A DNA stretch of 40,273 nucleotides, taken from Pseudomonadota bacterium (lineage in GTDB: Bacteria > Pseudomonadota > Alphaproteobacteria > Rs-D84). Below, one piece after another: positions 2,455 through 28,333 of this stretch. The stretch is from the NCBI GenBank assembly GCA_009781955.1, contig WQUT01000074.1:1-40273 (forward strand), in the 5' to 3' direction. Numbering within the stretch: position 1 is the stretch's first letter; every line of letters starts with the position of its first letter. The position numbers were made by a program, and so were the translations under genes. Under the pieces are notes generated by a model. The model saw only the letters and a program-made list of their open reading frames with translations, was not told the origin of the DNA and made no database searches.

Positions 2455-4005
<1,551 letters not shown>

Positions 4006-8285: not shown

Positions 8286-8374
8286 CTTGGCAATGCGCGA
8301 ATCTTAGCACGGGACGCGCCGCGGGGCAAGTGGAAATTCCCCCCCATAGGAGGAAGGCCACATTTGAACGGCCT

Positions 8375-8578
8375 AATTCCCCTCCCCAGGAGGGGTAGAT
8401 TTTATTAGCGGCGGCAGCCGCTTAGAAAATCTGGGGTGGGTTAGTTAAACAGAGAATAATGTTTATAAGTAGACACTATCAAAATTCCATGCGCCCACCC
8501 CGGAAAGCTAGGTCGTCCGTCTTTGCTTTGCAAAGCCGAGACTCCCGGCTTTCCTCCCCTCCTGCGGAGGGGAATTAC
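8375..8578. repeat. 204-bp composite palindromic element with AATTCCCCTCC hairpin ends
   Basis: aattcccctccccaggagggg ... cccctcctgcggaggggaatt. Inner modules agattttattagcggcggcagccgcttagaaaatct and cccacccc. The right end overlaps the envC-like stop codon. Confidence 0.75.
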
Positions 8579-9726
8579 GATGGTTCGCTGAACAGGCGCG
8601 CAGGATCAACGGCGTTCGCGCCGCGGCGGATTTCCAGATACATTTCCGGTTTCGGACCGGAACTGAACCAACCGGTATTCTGATCGGCGGCCGCCGTGCG
8701 TATCGCGTTGCTGTCGGGCATCCTGGCGACCGGTTCGCCCGCCAATACCTCTTGCCCCAGCAACACGTCAATGCTGCCCAGGCCCGTCATCACGGAATTA
8801 TACCCGTTTTTATGCGACAGTATCAGGACGCGGCCGAATCCCTTGAAGTTGTCCGCGAATTTCACAATGCCGTCCGCCGGCGCGGACACCAGCGCGCCGC
8901 CGCTGGCCCGTATGCGCCAGCCGTCGGATATCAGGCCCAATGCCGATTTTTCGCCGAACAGCGCGACCAGTTTTCCAGAAACCGGCGCGCGCAATTTTTT
9001 AGTGCTGAACGAAGTATCCGCGGACAGCGCGGATGACCCGACGCCGGACATCAGTTCGGCCAGATTTTTCGCCCGCGCGGACAAGGCGCGCAGCTTCGCC
9101 TGCAACTCCGTCTGTTGGTCGCGCAGTTTCTGATTCTGCGCGGTGCGCGTCTTCAACAGCTTGTCCAATTCGCTGCGCTCTGTCTTGTATTTCTTTGCAG
9201 AGGCAACCAGCTTTTCCTGTTGCGCCCGCTTGTTCTCTTGCACCGTTTCCAGTTCCGCAATCTGCGCGGCCGCGGCCCGCATATCCGCGTCAATCTGGCC
9301 GGACACGCCGGTCAGCAGCGCGGATGTCAGAACATATTCTCGCGCGTTGTCCGCATCAAAAGACACGCCGCGCGATATTGCCAGCAATCCCGCCGCCGCG
9401 TCGCCCAGGCGGCCGCGGTTTTCTTCGGTCTCCTTTTGCAGGATGGCCGATCGCGCGCCCAGGTCGGCGATATTTTTGGCGATGGCGGTCCGCTCTGACT
9501 CCAGCCTGGTCACCCGATCCGCGGCCGACACCAGCTGGGTCTTGGTCTTTTCAACGGTTTTGTCGGATTCTTTCACCGCCGCGTCCAGCTTCTTATTCTG
9601 CTTTTCTGCCGTGGCCAGCTGGGCCTGGACCGCCGCCAGTTCCGACGGCGCGGCCCGCGTCAATGTAGGGGCGCATATTTGCGCCCCAATTAACACCGCA
9701 AAAAATAAGTGGCCTGTTTTTTTCAT
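8575..9726 (-). CDS. EnvC-like murein hydrolase activator (coiled coil plus degenerate LytM/M23 domain)
   Basis: Signal peptide, ~230-aa coiled coil, and a C-terminal M23 fold ending EMYLEIRRGANAVDP (LYxEIR in place of HxH, as in EnvC). Start MKKTGHLFF preferred over 9762. Confidence 0.75.
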   Translation of the reverse strand: MKKTGHLFFAVLIGAQICAPTLTRAAPSELAAVQAQLATAEKQNKKLDAAVKESDKTVEKTKTQLVSAADRVTRLESERTAIAKNIADLGARSAILQKETEENRGRLGDAAAGLLAISRGVSFDADNAREYVLTSALLTGVSGQIDADMRAAAAQIAELETVQENKRAQQEKLVASAKKYKTERSELDKLLKTRTAQNQKLRDQQTELQAKLRALSARAKNLAELMSGVGSSALSADTSFSTKKLRAPVSGKLVALFGEKSALGLISDGWRIRASGGALVSAPADGIVKFADNFKGFGRVLILSHKNGYNSVMTGLGSIDVLLGQEVLAGEPVARMPDSNAIRTAAADQNTGWFSSGPKPEMYLEIRRGANAVDPARLFSEPS

Positions 9727-9761
9727 TTCAATCATAGGGCGCAATAACCCGGGCCCATACA

Positions 9762-10991
9762 TTATTTCACAACGACTTTCAAAAACGTTTTCTTTCCCTT
9801 TTGCAACAGGATTGATTTGCCGGGTTTTAATTCTACCTCTTCCAAAGAATTCAAAACTACTCTTCCATCTATTTTCAATCCACCTTGCTTTATAATTCTA
9901 CATATTTCGGAATTAGACGGAAACAGCCCAGAAAACATTGCAAAATCTATTATGCTGACCGGTTCTCGGTTGGCTTTCATTTCTATTGTTGGAATCGCCG
10001 CATCGTTTGCATGCGCGCCGCCGAACATTGATAATGCCGCGGTCGCCGCGCTTTCCGCCGCAGTCACGCCATGCGCGATTTTGGTCGCCTCAAAAGCCAA
10101 AATCTTTTTGGCTTCATTAATTTCAGAGTCGCGCAATTTGCCGAGCTTTGCGATTTCCGGCAAAGGCAATTCGGTATATATTTTAAGGAACTTTTCCACG
10201 TCGGCGTCCATCACGTTCCTGAAATACTGATAGTAATCAAACGGACTGGTCCGGTCGGCGCGAACCCACACCGCATTGCCCGCGGATTTCCCGATTTTCG
10301 CGCCATTTGAATCCGTAATCAGCGGACATGACAATACGTGCGCCTCTTTCTGCCGCTTGCGGCGGATCAGACTGGCGCCCGCGACGGAATTTCCCCATTG
10401 ATCCGCGCCGCACAGCTGCAAAGTGCAGCCATAGTTATCAAACAAATGCAGAAAATCCACGGCTTGCAGCGGCATGTAATTGAATTCCAAAAATGACATC
10501 TCGCCCGTATTCAGGCGTTTCTTTACGCTTTCCATTGCCAGCATCTGCGGCACGGTAAAGCTGGTCCCGAACTCGCGGAGAAAGTCAATATGGCTGAATT
10601 TTTTATGCCAGTCATAGTTATCAACCATAATGGCATCCGTCGCGCCGTCGCCGAACTTTATAAACTGTTCATAGCATTTGCGCAATCCGGCCGAGTTCGC
10701 GGCAATCTGCTTATCGTCCAGCATCGGCCGGTCCGAATTGCGATCCGACGGGTCGCCAATGCGCCCCGTCGCGCCGCCGACCAGCATTATCGGTTTGTTC
10801 CCGTATTTCTGGAACCAGCGTATTATCATCGCCGGGACCAAGTGTCCGACGTGCATGGAATCCATCGTCGGGTCCACGCCAAGGTAGGCCGTCACGGGCC
10901 CCGCAGAGAACGCGGCGCCAAGGGCGTCCCGATCGGTCGTTTGATAAATCAGTCCGCGGCTTTCCAATTCATGTAGAAAATCGTTTTTCAT
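9762..10991 (-). CDS. tyrS: tyrosine--tRNA ligase
   Basis: Class I motifs SMHVGHLV (HIGH) and KIGKSAG (KMSKS), with a C-terminal S4 domain. Confidence 0.9.
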   Translation of the reverse strand: MKNDFLHELESRGLIYQTTDRDALGAAFSAGPVTAYLGVDPTMDSMHVGHLVPAMIIRWFQKYGNKPIMLVGGATGRIGDPSDRNSDRPMLDDKQIAANSAGLRKCYEQFIKFGDGATDAIMVDNYDWHKKFSHIDFLREFGTSFTVPQMLAMESVKKRLNTGEMSFLEFNYMPLQAVDFLHLFDNYGCTLQLCGADQWGNSVAGASLIRRKRQKEAHVLSCPLITDSNGAKIGKSAGNAVWVRADRTSPFDYYQYFRNVMDADVEKFLKIYTELPLPEIAKLGKLRDSEINEAKKILAFEATKIAHGVTAAESAATAALSMFGGAHANDAAIPTIEMKANREPVSIIDFAMFSGLFPSNSEICRIIKQGGLKIDGRVVLNSLEEVELKPGKSILLQKGKKTFLKVVVK

Positions 10992-19069: not shown

Positions 19070-22000
19070 ATGAGGAAACTCTTTTCCATTTTTGCCGCCG
19101 TTGTCATCGCGTGCGCTTGCCCGCGCGCGCATGCGGACGATTCGGAGACAGAGGTAGCGCGCGCCGGCCGGCCCGGCGTTGCGGCGCCAATATCGGCGGC
19201 CCCGGCGCAATCCGCCGCAACCGCAGCGCAGCAACGCGGCCCGGCGCCCGCATCCAACCGCGCAACGCCCGCCGGCGCGGTCGTCGCGCCGACGGCGCCA
19301 AGCGCGCGGGGGGCCGCCACGCGCGAACCAACGCCAGAGGCGACGCGCACGGCGGCGCCGGGCCAATCGCAAATCTCGCCGGGGGCCGGGCCCGCGCCGA
19401 ACGTCCGCGCCGCCGCCACCCCGCGAGAGGTCGCGGCCCGCGCGGCCCCTGAATCCGCGCGAACCGCCGTCGCGCGCCCATCCGTCGCCGGCAATCAATT
19501 GCCAAATGCCCCAGTCAGAAACCAAGACGAAGGCTGGCTCGCCGCCCATGGCCCCGGCGAACGGTGGTCGCAGATTTCCCGCGCGGGCATAGCCCCACAA
19601 ATAGACACTAATCGCCAGTCGCCGGCCGCCAGCCGCCAGTCGCCAATCGCCCGTTCCGTAATGCGCGCGGCCGCGGCGCCGGGCATCGCGCCAAAGTCTG
19701 TCCGCGCGGCGATAACCCAGATCACCGGCGGCGACGGAAATCTGAACGATTACCAGCTGTGCCGCGATACTTACTTTCAATGCATGGACGAATTCTGCGC
19801 GAACAAGGACAGCCAGCTGCGCCGCTGCGCATGTTCAAAACGCATGCATGATTTTGACAAGGCGCAAAAAAACATGGATAAATTCCAAAACAAAATGCTG
19901 GATTTTAACCAAAGGCTGCTGACCGTCAGCATGGACAAGGAAGACGCGACCGCATCCATCAAGGCGACCGAGGGCGAGACGGCATTCCAGGCCGGCGATA
20001 CGTCGCCTTCGCAGCAAATCCTGGATACCATAATGGGCAAGCTGAAGTCCACCAACGCCGACAACAAGGATACTCATTCCCTGGCCATGATAACCTTGTC
20101 GCTGGACACCAGCACCGTGTTTGACACCATTGACTATACGTTGGGCGCGACGACCGCGACCAAGGAAGGCGACGCCCTGTTCCGCGCCGCGCTGCCCGTA
20201 TGCAAGGAAATAGCGGCCGAGATATGCGCCCCGGACGATATTTCCATCGCGCAGTCCGCATACGAAATGGCGATAGAGCAAGACTGCAACACCGCGCAAA
20301 AGGCGTATGAAAGCCTGCAGGATTCCGCGCTGCAGAAAGTGCGCGAGGGCAACGCCCTGCTGGACATGTCGCGGCTGCAGAATTACCAGGACCGCAATGC
20401 GGACGATACGTTGACCTGCAAGAAAAAGATGCTGGACATGCTGGCCAACGACGCGGTGTGCGGCGCCGATTTGGGCAAATGTCTGGACTGGTCCGGAAAA
20501 TACATTGATCCGTCAACCGGCACGGCCATACTCACCAGCAACCTTTCCAATCTGGCCAACATGCTGGTGCCGCCCAACAACGACCCCGCCGGCGCGAACA
20601 AATGGGTCAAGGTCAAGGAAAACTCCGGATTCGTAAAATTCCTGAACGCAAAGAAAAAATACATCTCGCCCGCGATGGACAGCTGCGAGAAAATTTCCGA
20701 CATGGTCTGGAACGGGTTTATGGAAGACGCGCTGGCCCAGATAAAAATCGCCCAAACCAGAAAGCTGGAGGATATGCGGCAAAGCTGCACCACCATCACC
20801 ACGACATGCCTGGCCGGAATGGCGCAGTCTTTGACCGATTTTGACACGCGCGCGCTGTCGGTGTTCGGCGTGAACGCCGATCGCACGGTGAACCAGATGT
20901 GCGCCCAGGTCAGGACCGCGTGCGACGGACTGATGGCGGCCACCGGCGGCGCGGGGGGGACCGACTGGCAGACCGGCATGACCGAAATCGCCCGCGACAA
21001 GACGTTTGACCAGATCATAAAGACCTGCATCCAGGTCGGGCAAAACTGCATCGTTCAGAACTGCACGTCCGCGGCCGGAAATTTCGGGCTGTGCAATTTC
21101 ATACAAGATTATCCGACGTCCATCAACAGAAACAAAGTGCTGACCGGAACCATATGCTTTAACGACGTGGTGTCGTGCGTGAATGACGCGAATCTTGCCG
21201 ACGACGTTCTGAACGCTATGCGCGGCGCGTGGTATGGGGCCGCGGCATTCGCCACGCCGGGCGGCAGCAATCTGTGCACCGCGGGCGTGGCAAACATGAA
21301 CACCTGCCTGCTGGCGCAATACATCTGGGGCGGATGCAACAGCGCCCCCCAGAACGCGGGCGCGGAAATACTGGTCAACGCAATCATAACCGATTCCACC
21401 AGGGCCAAATACAGCACCATAATGGCATGGTTCGGGACAAACACCCACAAAGATTGCTATGCCGCGAATTGCCCAAAGGATTGGGGCGGCAGCGTAACCG
21501 GATGCGATCCGTCTTACAGCGGGCCGCCCAGCCCCGTAACGGAATGCCCGGCCAACAAGAAATTTGCGGTTGCATCCGGTTTGACCAACTGCTGCGATTC
21601 CGGCGCGTTTGACAGCTTTGGAAACTGCTGTCCCAGCGGCGGCGTGAAATACGTGCCGGTTGACGTCACCGATACCGGCGCGGCGGATTTCTTCCGCGTT
21701 CCCGGAACATCGCCGAATTATAACGCCAACACGCTGAGCTCTGGTTCCAAGGGTTCCGGATGGGGATTTGGGGCCAATCAAACCGCCTATTCTATCGTGT
21801 GCTCTGGCCCCAGCCTGCAATTCATCGCAAAGTTCACGTCCAGCGGCGGCAACAGCCCGATATACCTGTTCTGTTCCTCTAGCGGCGGCACCGGCAAGAT
21901 GAGCGGAACGTATGCGACCGGCGGGAACGCGACCTGCAGCGGGAGATTCCTGGCCATCAATGCGGCCCGGGGGACATATTCCGCGCCGGTGTATACCCCG

Positions 22001-22207
22001 AATACGCCGAACGGCCCGGTATCGCCCGCGATGTATTACACTTCCGCCAGCGGCCCGTGCACATACAGCTTTAATCCCGATACGGAAGACGGAACGTGGA
22101 GCGGCAGCAACTGCACCGCGTTGCCGAACGCCCTGAACGAAACGGGCGGATCATGGAACGGCGCAATAAGAAAAGACACTCCGCCGAATATGTTTATCAA
22201 TTTCTAA
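19070..22207 (+). CDS. giant secreted cysteine-rich protein (1045 aa), unknown family
   Basis: Signal peptide MRKLFSIFAAVVIACACPRAHA, a ~200-aa Ala/Pro/Arg low-complexity region, then a Cys-rich body (CRDTYFQCMDEFCANKDSQLRRCACSKRM..., NCCDSGAFDSFGNCCPSG...) ending MFINF. Confidence 0.75.
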   Translation: MRKLFSIFAAVVIACACPRAHADDSETEVARAGRPGVAAPISAAPAQSAATAAQQRGPAPASNRATPAGAVVAPTAPSARGAATREPTPEATRTAAPGQSQISPGAGPAPNVRAAATPREVAARAAPESARTAVARPSVAGNQLPNAPVRNQDEGWLAAHGPGERWSQISRAGIAPQIDTNRQSPAASRQSPIARSVMRAAAAPGIAPKSVRAAITQITGGDGNLNDYQLCRDTYFQCMDEFCANKDSQLRRCACSKRMHDFDKAQKNMDKFQNKMLDFNQRLLTVSMDKEDATASIKATEGETAFQAGDTSPSQQILDTIMGKLKSTNADNKDTHSLAMITLSLDTSTVFDTIDYTLGATTATKEGDALFRAALPVCKEIAAEICAPDDISIAQSAYEMAIEQDCNTAQKAYESLQDSALQKVREGNALLDMSRLQNYQDRNADDTLTCKKKMLDMLANDAVCGADLGKCLDWSGKYIDPSTGTAILTSNLSNLANMLVPPNNDPAGANKWVKVKENSGFVKFLNAKKKYISPAMDSCEKISDMVWNGFMEDALAQIKIAQTRKLEDMRQSCTTITTTCLAGMAQSLTDFDTRALSVFGVNADRTVNQMCAQVRTACDGLMAATGGAGGTDWQTGMTEIARDKTFDQIIKTCIQVGQNCIVQNCTSAAGNFGLCNFIQDYPTSINRNKVLTGTICFNDVVSCVNDANLADDVLNAMRGAWYGAAAFATPGGSNLCTAGVANMNTCLLAQYIWGGCNSAPQNAGAEILVNAIITDSTRAKYSTIMAWFGTNTHKDCYAANCPKDWGGSVTGCDPSYSGPPSPVTECPANKKFAVASGLTNCCDSGAFDSFGNCCPSGGVKYVPVDVTDTGAADFFRVPGTSPNYNANTLSSGSKGSGWGFGANQTAYSIVCSGPSLQFIAKFTSSGGNSPIYLFCSSSGGTGKMSGTYATGGNATCSGRFLAINAARGTYSAPVYTPNTPNGPVSPAMYYTSASGPCTYSFNPDTEDGTWSGSNCTALPNALNETGGSWNGAIRKDTPPNMFINF
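19611..19649. repeat. heptamer array (CGCCAGN)x5.5, in frame in the giant ORF
   Basis: cgccagtcgccggccgccagccgccagtcgccaatcgcc encodes RQSPAASRQSPIA. Confidence 0.8.
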
Positions 22208-22208
22208 A

Positions 22209-22814
22209 TCATAAGTTTATCGCGGCGATGGCCCCAAGAACCTTTTTCAATTCTTCGGGTGAAAATCGGCCCAAGACCCAGTCGGTGGGATCAATGGGCG
22301 ACCCGGCATCGCGCGGATGGCCGACGCCGATGCGAATGCGCCGGTAATCGGGGCCGACCGCGGCGTCTATGCTGCGAATTCCATTATGGCCCGCGCTGCC
22401 CCCGCCGGTTTTTTGCCGCATTTCGCCGACACGGATATCCATATCGTCGTGAATTACAATCAAATTTTCCAGCGGGATTTTATAGTATTTCATCAATGCC
22501 GCCACCGCCGCGCCGGAATTGTTCATAAATGTCAGCGGCTTTGCAAAAATCGTTGGCCGTTGGTCGTTGGTCGTTGGTCGGTGGTCGTTGGTCGGTGGTC
22601 GGTGGTCGGTGGTCGGTGGTCGGTGGTCGGTGGTCGGTGGTCGGTGGGTGATTTTTGTGACAATCGCATCCTTTTCTTTTTTCCAAACCGCGTCCGCGCC
22701 CGCCAGCACATCAACCGCGATAAAGCCGGCGTTATGCCGGGTAGTCGCGTATTCGGCCCCCGGATTCCCCAGGCCGACAACCAATAATGGAGGCGATGCA
22801 TTCATACCCGTCAT
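22209..22814 (-). CDS. pth: peptidyl-tRNA hydrolase carrying an in-frame heptamer-array insert
   Basis: LLVVGLGNPGAEYATTRHNAGF..., KPLTFMNNSG, GGGSAGHNGIRS, RIRIGVGHP. A 32-aa HRPPTTD repeat lies between them. Confidence 0.9.
   Translation of the reverse strand: MTGMNASPPLLVVGLGNPGAEYATTRHNAGFIAVDVLAGADAVWKKEKDAIVTKITHRPPTTDHRPPTTDHRPPTNDHRPTTNDQRPTIFAKPLTFMNNSGAAVAALMKYYKIPLENLIVIHDDMDIRVGEMRQKTGGGSAGHNGIRSIDAAVGPDYRRIRIGVGHPRDAGSPIDPTDWVLGRFSPEELKKVLGAIAAINL
22551..22648. repeat. heptamer array CG(G/T)TGGT x14
   Basis: cgttggccgttggtcgttggt...cggtggtcggtggtcggtggg. Read on the minus strand it gives 7-aa periodicity: THRPPTTDHRPPTTDHRPPTNDHRPTTNDQRPT. Confidence 0.9.
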
Positions 22815-22902
22815 TATATCCGAAAAATCGCAGAGTTCAAAGAAAAAGATTGGGGCCTATATTCTTCTTGGCTTATTGGATTTATTGGGCTATCATATAA
22901 TC

Positions 22903-25830
22903 ATGCCCCAGCATCTGACCCTTATTGACGGGAATTCCATTTTATTCCGCGCCTATTACGGCGTGCATTCGCACTTGACGCGAACCGACGGAACGCCGGT
23001 CAATGCGGTGTATGGATTCTGCAACATGATACTGCCGCTGGTCGCCGCCGCGAAGCCGCACGAAATTTTCATATGCGTGTTTGACGCAGGCAGGCGGACT
23101 TTCCGCAATGACATTTATCCGGAATACAAGGCCAACCGCGCGGAAACGCCCGCCGATCTGGCCGCGCAGTTTGAGCTTTCGCGCGAAGCGGTGCGCGCGT
23201 TCGGAATCCCCCTGCTGGTCATTGACGGCGTAGAGGCCGACGACGTCATCGCGACCCTTTGCAATCACGAATGCGCGCTGAACCGCCAGACGCGGGTGGT
23301 GACGGGCGACAAAGACCTTATGCAGTTGGTCTCGCATTGCGTATTTCTGTATGACGGGATGAAGGAAAAAGAAATCCGCGCGCCCGAGGTATTGGAAAAA
23401 TTCGGGGTCCGGCCCGACCAGGTTATTGACGTTCAATCCCTGATGGGCGACTCGTCCGACAATGTGCCGGGCGTTCCCGGAATCGGGCCAAAGACCGCGA
23501 CAGAATTGATTCAGGAATTCGGATCGTTGGACAACCTGTATAAAAATGTAAATGAGATAAGCAAAGAGCGCATCAGAAAACTATTAAACGAGAATCGGGA
23601 CAAGGCCGAAATCTCGCGAAAACTGGTGACGCTGAAATCCGATGTGAAATTGCCGAAATTTTCGGACGAGCCGATGAAATTTGACGCCGACGGCGCGCTG
23701 GCTTTTGCCCGCGATAAATTGGAATCGCCGGCGCTGGCGGCAAAGATACGGAAACTGTTCGGGAATGCGGGGACCAATCAAGATTCCGATGAGGTTCCAC
23801 ACCCGCGGGCAGAGCCCGCCCTGCGGGAAAACAAGGAAAGCGAATCGGCGGCGCATCAGTTATTGAAACATAATAGCTCGCATTCTTCGGTTATTACGGC
23901 AGAGAACGAGCTGGACGAGTTTCTGTCGCATGTTGACGACGTTCTGGCCATTGACACCGAAACAACCGGGCTGAATCAGATGACCGACAAACTCGTCGGA
24001 ATATCGCTGGCCGTCGCGCCCGATCGCGGCGTATACATTCCATTGCGGCACAAAGAACAAGAGGCCGCGACCGATTTATTCAGTGCGGAAAGTGCGACCA
24101 CCAGCCACCAGCCACCAGCCGCCAAGCTTTCGCTTGACGCGGTCAAGCGAAAGCTTTGGCCGATTTTCAAAAAGGCGCATGTCGTAAAGGTCGGGCACAA
24201 CCTGAAATACGATCTGCACATATTTGAAAACGAAGGCTGGGATACATCCGAAATCGCGCCGATTGACGATACCATGCTGTTATCCTATATCCTGTATGGC
24301 GCCGCGCATACTCATGGTTTGGACGAGCTGGCGCATCTGTATCTGGGGCACGAAAATATAAAGTTTGATTCGCTGTTCCCGCCCAAGACCAAGGATTCCG
24401 ACAAGCGCTTTGCCGAAATCGCGGTCGCGTCCGCGGCGCCATATGCGGCCGAAGACGCGTGGGTGACATACGCGCTGTATAAAATATTCCGGGAAACATT
24501 GGAAAATTTGCCCCCCCTCTTGGGGGGGGCTGTCACGCATAGCGTGACTGGGGGGGGCTCTGACAATGAAGTCAGCTCCCCCTCGTCGCCTTCGGCGACA
24601 CTCCCCCCCAAGAGGGGGGAGAAAGACCGCTCTCTGCTCGCTCTTTACGAAAACTGCGACCGGCCGCTGTTGCGGATACTGATGCAGATGGAGCGCGCGG
24701 GCGTTCTGATAGACCAATCAAGTTTGCGCGAACTGTCCGACGTCCTGCATAAAAAGTCCGACGAGATTCAGGAACAGATTTGGAAAGCCGCGCATTTCAA
24801 ATTTAATATCGGCAGCCCGAAGCAGCTGGCGGAAATACTGTATGAAAAACTGGGCGTTCCCGCGCCGAAAACTAATTCAACCGATGCGGCGACGTTGGGC
24901 GACCTGGCCGATGCGCATCCCATAATCAACATGATCCTGGAATGGCGGTCATTAACGAAACTGTCGGGAACTTACGCGGACGCATTGCCGCGTCAGATCG
25001 GCCGCGACGGACGAATCCACACCACGTTTTTGCAGACCAGCACCAATACCGGGCGGCTTTCTTCGCGCGATCCGAACCTGCAAAACATTCCGATAAAAAC
25101 CGATTTGGGCGCGCAGATCCGCAAATGCTTTGTCGCGCCGGACGGCCGCGTTTTAATCTCGGCGGATTACTCGCAAATACAGTTGCGGTTGATGGCGCAT
25201 ATCGCGGACGTAAAGATTCTGAAAGAAATCTTTACAAATGGAGAGGATATTCATTCCATGACCGCGCGGCGCATATTCGCGCTGGCCCCGCATGCGACCG
25301 TGACCAAGGACCAGCGGCATGCGGCCAAGACCGTGAACTTTTCCATCATTTACGGCATATCGCCGTTCGGGCTGGGCAACCAATTGGGCATTTCGCAATC
25401 GGATGCGAAAAAGCTGATAGACTCTTACATGGCCAATTTCCCGGAAATTGACGCATACATAGAAAAAACGAAAAAATTCGCGATTGCGAACGGATTCGTT
25501 TTGACGCCCTGGGGCCGGCGCATAGAATTGCCGGAAATACGAAATCCGCGGATGCGCGCCTATGCCCTCCGCGCCGCGATCAACGCGCCGATACAGGGTT
25601 TTGAGGCCGACCTGATGCGATTCGCGATGGTTAAAATCGGCGGGCAATTGGAACCGCATTCCGACCAGATAAAAATGCTGCTGCAGGTGCACGACGAACT
25701 GGTGTTTGAATGCGATGAAAAGCACGCGGAATATTGGGCGGAAAAGATAAAGCATGAAATGGAAAACGTGGCGAAGCTTTCCGTGCCCATCGCCGCGGAA
25801 ACCAAGATTGGAAAATCGTGGGACAAGTAA
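22903..25830 (+). CDS. polA: DNA polymerase I
   Basis: Start MPQHLTLIDGNSILFRAYYG (the track's 22519 start is an antisense-of-pth artefact). 5' nuclease, 3'-5' exo (AIDTETTGL), pol motifs ADYSQIQLRLMAH, RHAAKTVNFSIIYG, LLQVHDELVFE. Confidence 0.92.
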   Translation: MPQHLTLIDGNSILFRAYYGVHSHLTRTDGTPVNAVYGFCNMILPLVAAAKPHEIFICVFDAGRRTFRNDIYPEYKANRAETPADLAAQFELSREAVRAFGIPLLVIDGVEADDVIATLCNHECALNRQTRVVTGDKDLMQLVSHCVFLYDGMKEKEIRAPEVLEKFGVRPDQVIDVQSLMGDSSDNVPGVPGIGPKTATELIQEFGSLDNLYKNVNEISKERIRKLLNENRDKAEISRKLVTLKSDVKLPKFSDEPMKFDADGALAFARDKLESPALAAKIRKLFGNAGTNQDSDEVPHPRAEPALRENKESESAAHQLLKHNSSHSSVITAENELDEFLSHVDDVLAIDTETTGLNQMTDKLVGISLAVAPDRGVYIPLRHKEQEAATDLFSAESATTSHQPPAAKLSLDAVKRKLWPIFKKAHVVKVGHNLKYDLHIFENEGWDTSEIAPIDDTMLLSYILYGAAHTHGLDELAHLYLGHENIKFDSLFPPKTKDSDKRFAEIAVASAAPYAAEDAWVTYALYKIFRETLENLPPLLGGAVTHSVTGGGSDNEVSSPSSPSATLPPKRGEKDRSLLALYENCDRPLLRILMQMERAGVLIDQSSLRELSDVLHKKSDEIQEQIWKAAHFKFNIGSPKQLAEILYEKLGVPAPKTNSTDAATLGDLADAHPIINMILEWRSLTKLSGTYADALPRQIGRDGRIHTTFLQTSTNTGRLSSRDPNLQNIPIKTDLGAQIRKCFVAPDGRVLISADYSQIQLRLMAHIADVKILKEIFTNGEDIHSMTARRIFALAPHATVTKDQRHAAKTVNFSIIYGISPFGLGNQLGISQSDAKKLIDSYMANFPEIDAYIEKTKKFAIANGFVLTPWGRRIELPEIRNPRMRAYALRAAINAPIQGFEADLMRFAMVKIGGQLEPHSDQIKMLLQVHDELVFECDEKHAEYWAEKIKHEMENVAKLSVPIAAETKIGKSWDK
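24101..24123. repeat. heptamer array (CCAGCCA)x3, in frame in the polA exo domain
   Basis: ccagccaccagccaccagccgcc encodes SHQPPAA in a loop before LSLDAVKRKLWP. Confidence 0.8.
24511..24621. repeat. C-run/G-run multi-hairpin element, in frame in polA
   Basis: ccccccctcttggggggggctgtcacgcatagcgtgactggggggggc...ctcccccccaagaggggggag. 111 bp encoding PPLLGGAVTHSVTGGGSDNEVSSPSSPSATLPPKRGE at the exo/polymerase junction. Confidence 0.8.
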
Positions 25831-26952: not shown

Positions 26953-27077
26953 ATGGCAAATGAAAAATGGTAAATTTATAGCATATTGCCCAAAATGCGC
27001 AGATATTTCACACTTTGTATCTCTTGCCCCTTCCATCTTCCATTTCCCATTTACCATTTACCATTTACCCTTTCACC
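26953..27077. repeat. inverted pair of heptamer arrays (ATTTACC-type) overlapping the recO stop codon
   Basis: Left atggcaaatgaaaaatggtaaat (26953-26975). Right ccatcttccatttcccatttaccatttaccatttaccctttcacc (27033-27077). Confidence 0.75.
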
Positions 27078-28333
27078 TGCTGCCGCGCATGGGGCAGCGC
27101 GCGGCCGCCCTGGTCCTGGGCTATCTTGTTCAAGAAATATTTTGTGGCGTCCAAATCAACGGGCAGTTCAAAAAGCCGCCCGTCATACGGCGCGGCGCAA
27201 GTTCTGCATACGGCGCGGCCGGTCCGCGGGGACAGATGGGTCAAATTATCCGTCCGACCGCAATTGCTGCACCGCGACAAATCCAGCGCATAGCCCAATT
27301 CCCGCAGCAGCCATATTTCCCAGTCAAGATATAACCGATGGATATCTTCTTTATAAAAGCCATCCTGTCCCCCCACCGGCCCGCAACCATGCGCGCCGAC
27401 TCCCCCCAAGGGGGGAGTAGTTAAATGCTCATTTAACTCGCTTGTTATGAGTGCTGAATTACTCCCCCCTTGGGGGGAGTCGCAGAGCGCAAGCGTTGTT
27501 TCCGCGCCGCGCGATGCGGTGGGGGGACAAAGATATTCGTGTATTACACGCAATACCCCGTCCATATCTTTGAAAACTTGCCTGTTATCAAATCTTATAA
27601 TTCTATACCCATCGCCATTTAATATTTTAGTCCTTTCTACATCATGCATACGGTTGCCTTCTTCGTAATGCTGTTCGCCATCCAATTCTATTATCAGCCT
27701 TTTTTCCAAGCATACAAAGTCTGCAATATATTTGTTTATCGGGCACTGTTTTCTAAAAGCATACCCCATCTTGTTATCTTTCAAATAATGCCAAAGTAAC
27801 TTCTCGGCCGATGTCATGTTCTTTCGCAAGTTCTGAGCCTGATGCAAAGCAAGTTCAGTGTTTCTTTTTTCGGGGTTATGTTGTCCCCCCACCGGCCCGC
27901 AACTACGCGCGCCTACTCCCCCCAAGGGGGGAGTAGTTGCCTCATTTCCAAATTTTAAAAAGTGATTTCCGATTTTGTCCAACAAATCAATCGTTCTGTC
28001 ATACAAAAATGTATACTTTTCCCGTTCCGGCAGCAGCGCGTGTATCAGCGCGAACGCCGAATTAACTATGGCGAGCGTCTCTGCGTCGTTCATCAGCGGC
28101 GCGGCCATGTTGCGCGACGATTCCCAATGAAACGCGCCCAGGGCGGAATCCAGCCGCGCATTCCAAGACGCCGCGCCAACCTGTCCGACCAATGGCCGGT
28201 TTTTCTTTGCGACCGCCGCGCCCTTCATCATGCCGGCGAGCATGCCGAATTCGCGCGTAAAGATATGCGCGACCATGTCGCGTTCCCCGAACGGGCGCAA
28301 TCCGATAATAATGCCGGCTGATTCCAGTTTCAT
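27065..28333 (-). CDS. recO: DNA repair protein RecO interrupted in frame by a 191-codon DUF559 element
   Basis: N part MKLESAGIIIGLRPFGERDMVAHIFT... (~135 aa). C part ...DIHRLYLDWEIWLLRELGYALDLSRCSNCGRTDNLTHLSPRTGRAVCRTC (Zn finger). Together they give normal RecO length. One continuous ORF. Confidence 0.85.
   Translation of the reverse strand: MKLESAGIIIGLRPFGERDMVAHIFTREFGMLAGMMKGAAVAKKNRPLVGQVGAASWNARLDSALGAFHWESSRNMAAPLMNDAETLAIVNSAFALIHALLPEREKYTFLYDRTIDLLDKIGNHFLKFGNEATTPPLGGVGARSCGPVGGQHNPEKRNTELALHQAQNLRKNMTSAEKLLWHYLKDNKMGYAFRKQCPINKYIADFVCLEKRLIIELDGEQHYEEGNRMHDVERTKILNGDGYRIIRFDNRQVFKDMDGVLRVIHEYLCPPTASRGAETTLALCDSPQGGSNSALITSELNEHLTTPPLGGVGAHGCGPVGGQDGFYKEDIHRLYLDWEIWLLRELGYALDLSRCSNCGRTDNLTHLSPRTGRAVCRTCAAPYDGRLFELPVDLDATKYFLNKIAQDQGGRALPHARQQVKG
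27365..27937 (-). mobile_element. DUF559-ORF element plus an extra hairpin unit, in frame within recO
   Basis: Inverted ends 27461-27530 and 27881-27937 share actccccccttggggggagt...ggtggggggacaa. A third 57-nt unit (27365-27421) is a direct repeat of 27881-27937. AT-rich core encodes LLWHYLKDNKMGYAFRKQCPINKYIADFVCLEKRLIIELDGEQH. Confidence 0.85.

Follow-up and report, generated by a model that had tools for sequence, protein, structure and literature searches.

How does a recO gene come to encode a nuclease domain in its middle, between palindromic repeats and within one uninterrupted reading frame, and what is the inserted segment? The question is raised by a contig of 40,273 nucleotides (WQUT01000074.1 of assembly GCA_009781955.1, assigned to the alphaproteobacterial lineage Rs-D84; the whole contig is called the window below), where a stretch of 573 nucleotides, i.e., 191 codons without a stop (27365-27937), lies in frame inside recO and encodes a DUF559 domain. 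With modest confidence, we take this segment to be a long-resident, translated selfish nuclease element that sits, together with its cognate palindromes, in a variable linker of RecO. The recO gene and its parts, the latter given in the coding direction, are as follows.

27065-28333, minus strand: recO, whole reading frame of 422 codons and a stop, starting with MKLESAG, the insert being read through in frame
27938-28333, minus strand: RecO N-terminal part, residues 1-132, ending in ...NHFLKFGNEA (assigned by the RecO_N match and orthologue alignment)
27881-27937, minus strand: upstream end unit, composed of the H hairpin ACTCCCCCCTTGGGGGGAGT, a middle hairpin, and the G6 arm GGTGGGGGGACA; encodes TTPPLGGVGARSCGPVGGQ
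27533-27844, minus strand: DUF559, or Vsr-like PD-(D/E)XK, nuclease domain, residues 164-267 (predicted from Pfam, the sequence match to 3HRL, and the structural model)
27457-27530, minus strand: downstream end unit, inverted relative to 27881-27937, composed of the C6 arm TTGTCCCCCCACCG, a longer middle hairpin, and the H hairpin
27423-27456, minus strand: AT-rich spacer of 34 nucleotides between the inverted and the extra unit, forming the loop of the local palindrome 27397-27482
27366-27422, minus strand: third (extra) end unit, a direct copy (95%) of 27882-27938; encodes TTPPLGGVGAHGCGPVGGQ
27065-27364, minus strand: RecO C-terminal part, residues 324-422 and the stop, with the Zn finger (assigned by the RecO_C match and alignment)

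The single reading frame holds Pfam matches to RecO_N (residues 1-46), DUF559 (residues 164-267), and RecO_C (residues 334-387), the DUF559 profile (PF04480) being matched over positions 5-107 of its 109 (E = 9.8e-34; 115.9 bits vs. a cut-off of 20.6). An earlier reading of this DNA, made from the letters and their open reading frames (ORFs) and referred to as the sequence-only reading, had claimed just such a DUF559 domain, in frame and free of stops, and both the profile search and the frame bear it out. The same is true of its claims that the two RecO parts together have normal length (231 amino acids without the insert, compared with ~207-235 amino acids in uninterrupted orthologues), that the nuclease core is AT-rich (GC content 0.39-0.43 vs. 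0.55-0.60 in the flanks), and that the ends are inverted: the arms are 27457-27489 and 27906-27938 (33 nucleotides, 85%), and 27517-27530 and 27881-27894 (14 nucleotides, 100%). The additional direct copy of the end unit described there, 57 nucleotides long, is present as well (27366-27422 and 27882-27938, 95% identity); it is no oddity of this gene, and belongs to a multi-unit layout that recurs in two further recO loci introduced below (L029 and L036). Downstream of the nuclease, positions 27397-27482 form a local palindrome with 36-nucleotide arms that are 86% complementary and 14 nucleotides apart. The 20-nucleotide palindrome ACTCCCCCCWWGGGGGGAGT has three copies in the window, all at the recO insert, compared with 0.00 copies expected from shuffled sequences.

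Alignment with uninterrupted orthologues, suggested in the sequence-only reading as the way to define the insertion point, was made with 11 RecO proteins from uncultured Alphaproteobacteria (some labelled Rickettsiales by the source). It places the insert in a short variable linker (4-13 amino acids in most orthologues) that joins the ...LPEREKY...LL helix to the YLxWEI motif; a phmmer comparison of the insert-less RecO with PDB sequences gave no match at E ≤ 0.01, and the insertion point was placed via this alignment. Relative to the 11 orthologues, neither the RecO core residues nor the four Zn-finger cysteines (C355, C358, C376, and C379) vary, and thus recO looks like a functional gene and not a pseudogene. 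The last ~10 residues of the RecO N-terminal part are encoded by AT-rich DNA and include the motif (F/Y)L(K/R)xxN, which occurs only in insert-bearing alleles; hence, the true insertion may be slightly larger, extending ~30 nucleotides past the boundary given in the list. The AT-rich stretch that encodes this motif in the window is 27938-27975; it likewise precedes the first unit in L029, L036, and a further recO locus (L003), and uninterrupted orthologues do not have it.

In the sequences of the window and L029, no ATG, GTG, or TTG that could serve as an independent start of the recO nuclease was found within reach of the G-rich arm, and its expression would thus ride on that of recO. An intron was considered and dropped, the Rfam search of the entire window (gathering thresholds) having returned two tRNAs only; so was an intein, as no Hint domain was detected and the junctions, between A and T in ...NEA-TTPP... 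and between Q and D in ...GGQ-DGFY..., do not show the intein pattern. The sequence-only reading had noted the lack of intein splice-junction residues and expected a mosaic of RecO and nuclease, and in both respects it stands. The structure of this mosaic, which it had proposed to predict, was modeled by AlphaFold2 from a combined alignment of 54 DUF559 proteins, eight RecO proteins, and one other mosaic. The nuclease is folded in the model: the predicted local distance difference test (pLDDT) score is 80-97 for residues ~150-275 and falls below 50 in the repeat-encoded segments 133-149 and 278-322, which we therefore regard as disordered linkers. The predicted product would consist of the RecO N-domain, a disordered linker encoded by the unit, the folded nuclease, a second disordered linker, and the RecO C-domain.

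The nuclease core matches PDB entry 3HRL by sequence (E = 9e-18), and a Foldseek search with the confidently modeled domain retrieved 3HRL (template modeling (TM) score 0.80), the catalytic domain of I-Bth0305I (3R3P, 0.77), and E. coli Vsr (1VSR, 0.50). Residues D205, E216, D218, H222, D231, and R234 do not vary among nine copies taken from different hosts, which makes them candidate catalytic residues; we take the set D205/E216/D218/H222/D231 to correspond to D51/H69/D97 of Vsr, as matched by motif comparison and not by superposition. The insert domain is thus predicted, from sequence and model, to be a Vsr-like (DUF559, EDxHD-type) nuclease. The Vsr enzyme of E. coli acts on T:G mismatches that lie in CCWGG contexts. 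In the H hairpin (27399-27418, 27461-27480, and 27915-27934), the central letters are CCWWGG, embedded in CCCCCCWWGGGGGG; we treat its likeness to the Vsr context only as a lead.

The insert is not confined to the window. A scan for the H palindrome in a genome collection with one genome per species gave 29 loci, of which only the alphaproteobacterial ones were used; the others (Kiritimatiellae, Bacteroidales, Actinomycetota, and more) may be unrelated palindromes. Eight loci fall in one metagenome-assembled genome (MAG), Alphaproteobacteria bacterium Nt197P3bin78, and one of these (L029, on a contig shared with L037) is a recO gene with a DUF559 element at the same linker. A metagenome scan added a third mosaic recO (L036, 448 amino acids), again with the insert at this linker. 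The gene is adjoined by rpsR and rplI in the window, L029, and L036, and the conserved rpsR-rplI-recO synteny shows the three insert-bearing loci to be orthologous. If a unit composed of the C6 arm, the middle hairpin, and the H hairpin is denoted X, and its inverse Y, the layout in the coding direction is X-Y-DUF559-X-Y in L029 and L036, and Y-DUF559-X-Y in the window.

Between the window and L029, the nuclease core has 69% amino acid identity, with the proportions of nonsynonymous and synonymous differences pN 0.20 and pS 0.73 (the latter saturated), compared with 63% identity in RecO_N and 56% in RecO_C. By these figures, the nuclease is constrained at least as much as its host RecO and is under strong purifying selection. 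The flanking repeats are 95-100% identical inside each genome, yet different between genomes, so that continuing conversion or re-copying is needed to explain them. As judged from these comparisons, the recO insertion is old and shared by at least three genomes, not private or recent. The sequence-only reading had set against its own proposal an ancient, fixed fusion without hairpin ends; the fusion is indeed old and conserved, and the hairpin ends are still there.

Further recO alleles show other states of the same linker. It holds X and one H hairpin without the nuclease in P0031/L003, and a decayed doublet of H-type units, also without the nuclease, in P0009/L002. The nuclease in P0007/L001 is only 28% identical and has another end type (77-nucleotide inverted repeats, 94% complementary), and thus represents an independent insertion in the same linker. 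The closest recO relative found, L041 (87% identity over residues 1-100), stops short of the insertion site.

The end units are members of a repeat family with dispersed copies. The 21 units that we compared, which come from the window, L029, L036, L003, and the MAG loci, each contain CCCCCCACCG, a middle hairpin, and the H hairpin ACTCCCCCCnnGGGGGGAG. The middle hairpin is 4-8 bp long and well paired (perfectly so in most units), and at least 10 different stem sequences occur, all kept complementary; pairing that is retained as the stem sequence changes points to selection on DNA or RNA structure. Elsewhere in Nt197P3bin78, units are found as solo X units and as doublets of the form Y-(AT-rich spacer)-X, the form that would be expected after deletion of the nuclease from Y-DUF559-X. 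Most of these copies are in frame within housekeeping genes: the in-frame hosts in this MAG are Lnt, Xth, a methyltransferase, MnmE, and LigA. GatB of another MAG carries the H palindrome. The unit sequence, as read from the repeat, is open in five of six frames.

A sister element in the window, at the start of the PFOR gene, has ends of a second type; a nuclease-less element with the same ends lies 4.5 kb from it.

3487-3952, minus strand: PFOR-start element, second end type, with perfect 51-nucleotide inverted repeats (3488-3538 and 3898-3948) around a DUF559 ORF
3462-3486 (downstream in the coding direction) and 3953-3977, strand not assigned: 25-nucleotide perfect direct repeat of host coding sequence
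8374-8577, strand not assigned: intergenic nuclease-less element of 204 nucleotides with PFOR-type ends (TTCCCCTCCnnnGGAGGGG)

The PFOR nuclease is 34% identical to the recO nuclease at the protein level, and the ends share the three-part design, with the outer hairpin CCCCTCC/GGAGGGG, a middle hairpin, and an inner G-rich arm; the PFOR copy is thus a different lineage with the same modular architecture, as the sequence-only reading had it. Its statement that the recO element is in frame "as in PFOR" holds for recO and needs correcting in detail for PFOR. The original PFOR start comprises 15 codons and is then cut short by a TAA that belongs to the element edge. Translation of the nuclease begins anew at TTG 3894, five nucleotides past GGAGG of the inner arm, and continues into PFOR. 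These signals predict that PFOR is made as an N-terminal DUF559-PFOR fusion, not as a simple internal in-frame insert.

The 25-nucleotide duplication restores IADGGWAA in PFOR, and the reconstructed empty site is ATAGCCGATGGCGGCTGGGCGGCGGCGGATG. The N-terminus of an uninterrupted PFOR orthologue (P0350) matches this site, and the DNA of a 90%-identical uninterrupted orthologue (P0342/L047), read across it, is empty. On this evidence, a target duplication is the best reading of the repeat. In a PFOR with 80% identity (P0352/L046), this position is occupied by a related element that has an ATG of its own behind GGGTGGG and no duplication. The presence of the nuclease-less element with PFOR-type ends in the same window implies that nuclease lineage and end type go together. 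With its 51-nucleotide inverted repeat, 25-nucleotide duplication, and empty site, the PFOR element bears the marks of mobility.

A third end type is represented in the window by a doublet in polA.

24508-24623, plus strand: doublet without nuclease, third end type (GCCCCCCCTCTTGGGGGGGGC), in frame in polA (22519-25830), between the 3'-5' exonuclease and polymerase domains

This doublet encodes ...LPPLLGGAVTHSVTGGGSDNEVSSPSSPSATLPPKRGE..., and a polA-type unit is seen at 116-180. A fourth type is found in an intergenic Y-spacer-X doublet (~1005-1170), and the terminal TAATT of the 8374-8577 element gives the TAA stop of an M23 peptidase gene (8575-9762, minus strand). Roughly six palindromic elements are found in the 40-kb window. 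Thus, the phenomenon known from Rickettsia palindromic elements (RPEs) is present in another alphaproteobacterial lineage. In P0194 (390 amino acids), a LigA fragment with the oligonucleotide/oligosaccharide-binding fold, H-type units, DUF559, and the RecO C-terminal domain are combined, and LigA of a related MAG has H-type units too (L030). P0194 is either a true recombination between units of two genes or a chimeric assembly via near-identical repeats; near-identical units may cause such chimeras, and this protein with its LigA and RecO parts is a possible case. An ORF at 19070-22207 of the plus strand (1045 amino acids) has no Pfam match at E ≤ 0.001, is overlapped by minus-strand ORFs, and may not be a real gene.

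The combination of DUF559 with a host protein is widespread. A HMMER search of 1.84 billion representative proteins gave 22,875 matches at E ≤ 0.001, and the DUF559 domain in the best 150 of these 22,875 is positioned as follows, "internal" meaning at least 80 amino acids on both sides of the domain.

Free-standing: 82
N-terminal to another protein: 22
C-terminal to another protein: 10
Internal: 36

Hosts recognized by Pfam include HsdS, class I tRNA synthetase (PF00133; IleRS), NadE, LipB/LplA, QueH, and a protein of the AP_endonuc_2 fold; HolC, Ham1/RdgB, Mrp-type ATPase, PriA-like helicase, YkuD, and TsaD-family (PF00814) proteins; and Sua5, Mur ligase, HydF, PrmC, and an Eco57I-type enzyme. 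In several of them, repeat-encoded peptides of the PPxxGG type stand on both sides of the nuclease, and in QueH the nuclease is flanked by a direct repeat. Among the best 150, internal or terminal DUF559 domains are most frequent in HsdS, which often has an N-terminal nucleotidyltransferase domain (HsdS hosts: P0202-P0206, P0219, P0221, P0229, P0231, P0252, P0255, P0277, P0296, P0297, and P0331).

At the DNA level, inverted repeats of 19-35 nucleotides bracket DUF559 with a spacing of 330-400 nucleotides in three unrelated loci (L033, L034, and L035). In L034, a DUF559 gene with 19-nucleotide inverted repeats (1501-2013) is flanked by the flagellar export genes fliQ and fliR, both of which the called ORF overlaps. 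In a bacteria-wide screen, "DUF559 domain-containing protein" was overrepresented (odds ratio 14) among the products predicted to be targets of programmed inversion (PMC9881135), which fits DUF559 genes being bracketed by inverted repeats. In the literature searched, which omits most subscription journals, we found no paper in which DUF559 is described as the gene carried by an in-frame or palindrome-bounded element.

Several known systems resemble the recO element in part. RPEs are short palindromic repeats that often lie in frame in unrelated housekeeping genes of Rickettsia and are translated as an extra peptide (PMC10969869). The units described here are likewise dispersed alphaproteobacterial palindromes, in frame and translated, and the recO family has terminal inverted repeats and many copies; however, RPEs are ~150 bp long and have no tied enzyme, whereas some copies here carry a nuclease gene between the palindromic ends. 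To our knowledge, no enzyme has been tied to the spread of the in-frame palindromic repeats of Rickettsia, known for more than 20 years.

In the REPIN-RAYT system, an enzyme gene is flanked by cognate palindromes, and inverted doublets are its non-autonomous partners (bioRxiv 10.1101/2021.07.10.451892). An enzyme, cognate palindromes, inverted doublets, and a long residence are common to both cases; at the recO locus, orthologous in three genomes, this residence may be vertical. The enzymes differ, RAYT being a Y1/HUH (IS200/IS605-like) transposase and the one here Vsr-like, and so do the locations: the repetitive extragenic palindromes (REPs) lie outside genes, whereas both the nuclease gene and the units considered here are intragenic and translated. 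By analogy, REPIN-RAYT nevertheless appears to be the closest working parallel.

Homing endonucleases of the EDxHD type reside in DNA-repair and replication genes (PMC3239194). I-Bth0305I, one of them, resembles the recO nuclease in its catalytic fold and residue set (TM score with 3R3P as given above; invariant D, E, D, H, D); it differs in having N-terminal NUMOD and helix-turn-helix (HTH) modules and in residing in a self-splicing group I intron, with relatives in inteins. In the recO insert, no other Pfam domain (NUMOD or HTH) and no intron or intein was found, and the nuclease is flanked by repeat-encoded disordered segments. By sequence and model, the EDxHD homing endonucleases seem to be its closest enzymatic relatives. 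Like an intein, the recO insert encodes a nuclease in frame in an essential gene, is co-translated with it, and is sporadic at a given site among related genomes; unlike an intein, it has neither a Hint domain nor splice-junction residues, so the nuclease is expected to stay in the protein. The NGO0050-type DUF559 protein (PDB 3HRL), the closest solved structure by both sequence and fold, is a stand-alone protein of ~100 amino acids with no assigned function, whereas the recO domain is internal.

How such an element might move we infer at every step. The nuclease would nick or cut at the palindromic units that are cognate to it, whether these are in duplex form or extruded as hairpins or cruciforms; host repair of the cut would then copy the units and the nuclease gene into new or unit-bearing sites, in a homing- or transposition-like manner, and nuclease-less doublets would be non-autonomous derivatives, as REPINs are to a RAYT gene. 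Residence in frame would be favored by the near absence of stops in GC-rich palindromes, with selection keeping the insertions in permissive linkers where the host protein is preserved, and co-translation with this protein would give the nuclease expression without a promoter of its own. A wider proposal, that DUF559 elements are an undescribed class of autonomous mobile elements (a Vsr-like nuclease gene of ~0.45-0.6 kb with structured palindromic ends), tolerated in essential genes as a harmless additional domain that is translated through and not spliced as an intron or intein, and that their nuclease is the mobilizing enzyme of RPE-like repeats, we advance tentatively, as a substantial possibility that is nevertheless less likely than not.

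Several points weigh against a selfish element in recO. No target-site duplication of host sequence is visible at recO beyond the repeated units, and no closely related empty recO allele was found, the uninterrupted orthologues being only ~70-72% identical (the nearest insert-bearing relative, L036, is 74% identical). The neighbor-joining tree of trimmed RecO is poorly resolved, with sequences all ~60-74% identical, and gain, loss, and vertical descent of the insert cannot be told apart on it, nor can a single ancient gain followed by losses be distinguished from repeated gains. The link between the nuclease and the units would follow solely from their co-location and the co-variation of their types. 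The RecO parts of the model have low confidence, the alignment being shallow with only a few RecO sequences. Finally, that the nuclease is strongly conserved within a single host gene of three genomes is also compatible with a function for the host.

The last point leads to a different explanation, a domesticated fusion, where the nuclease has become a working part of RecO (acting, e.g., on DNA ends or junctions in RecFOR-type repair) and the palindromes are remnants of its arrival. The occurrence of the same insertion in three genomes at a syntenic locus, with the nuclease more conserved than RecO and the catalytic residues intact, speaks for it, as does the activity on DNA of many proteins in which DUF559 or units reside (RecO, LigA, PolA, HolC, the PriA-like protein, Xth, and HsdS). 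However, the same module is found in proteins without a DNA role (class I tRNA synthetase, NadE, LipB, QueH, PFOR, Mur ligase, and HydF), uninterrupted recO orthologues are interspersed with insert-bearing ones, and there are recO alleles with units and without the nuclease. The linkers, predicted to be disordered and derived from near-identical repeats, also point to ongoing turnover at the DNA level rather than to a settled domain boundary. We consider a domesticated fusion unlikely.

It is also improbable that the units are a landing pad only, spread by some other enzyme or by repair, and that DUF559 is a separate homing-type gene that targets them or is tolerated in them. Each nuclease lineage has its own end type, with matching nuclease-less elements in the same genome; the PFOR element entered plain host sequence without a pre-existing unit; and no other candidate transposase was seen in the 40 kb and the short loci examined. 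These observations have to be set against the excess of solo units and doublets, which far outnumber nuclease-bearing copies among the loci seen, and against the X-Y-DUF559-X-Y layout, which is what insertion into the middle of an existing X-Y doublet would produce; moreover, Vsr-like EDxHD enzymes are proven homing endonucleases (PMC3239194).

An invertible switch, in which recombination of the inverted ends flips the nuclease segment, turns recO off, and makes repair phase-variable, draws on the DUF559 enrichment in the inversion screen (PMC9881135) and on the sequence itself, inversion of 27457-27938 keeping the downstream frame and adding a stop at residue 187. We regard it as very improbable: the orientation is the same, open one in all three genomes, no invertase gene lies near recO in the window, and a mere spacer would need no purifying selection on the nuclease ORF. 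It is hardly credible that the insert is removed before maturation (as an intron, an intein, or by translational bypass), or that this recO is a pseudogene or the product of faulty assembly. The long inverted ends could join the flanks at the RNA level, and the insert is sizeable compared with RecO; yet neither an Rfam intron nor a Hint domain is present, the junctions are those given above, the RecO core and Zn-finger residues are intact, and the 191 codons are open in three independent assemblies.

In the reading that we prefer, that of a selfish nuclease element resident in the RecO linker, both constituents, a selfish nuclease gene and an in-frame palindromic repeat, are of kinds already known, and it is their combination that appears to be new. 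In-frame repeats in the style of RPEs are here physically paired with a conserved nuclease gene, and the pairing recurs with different end types, host genes, and lineages. Many database entries for "multi-domain" DUF559 fusions, which make up ~45% of the 150 closest relatives, probably represent host genes in which such an element resides. If the nuclease acts on the units that flank it, this would provide a testable mechanism for in-frame palindromic repeats and, besides introns and inteins, a third way for a selfish nuclease to live inside essential genes, in this case by staying in the protein.

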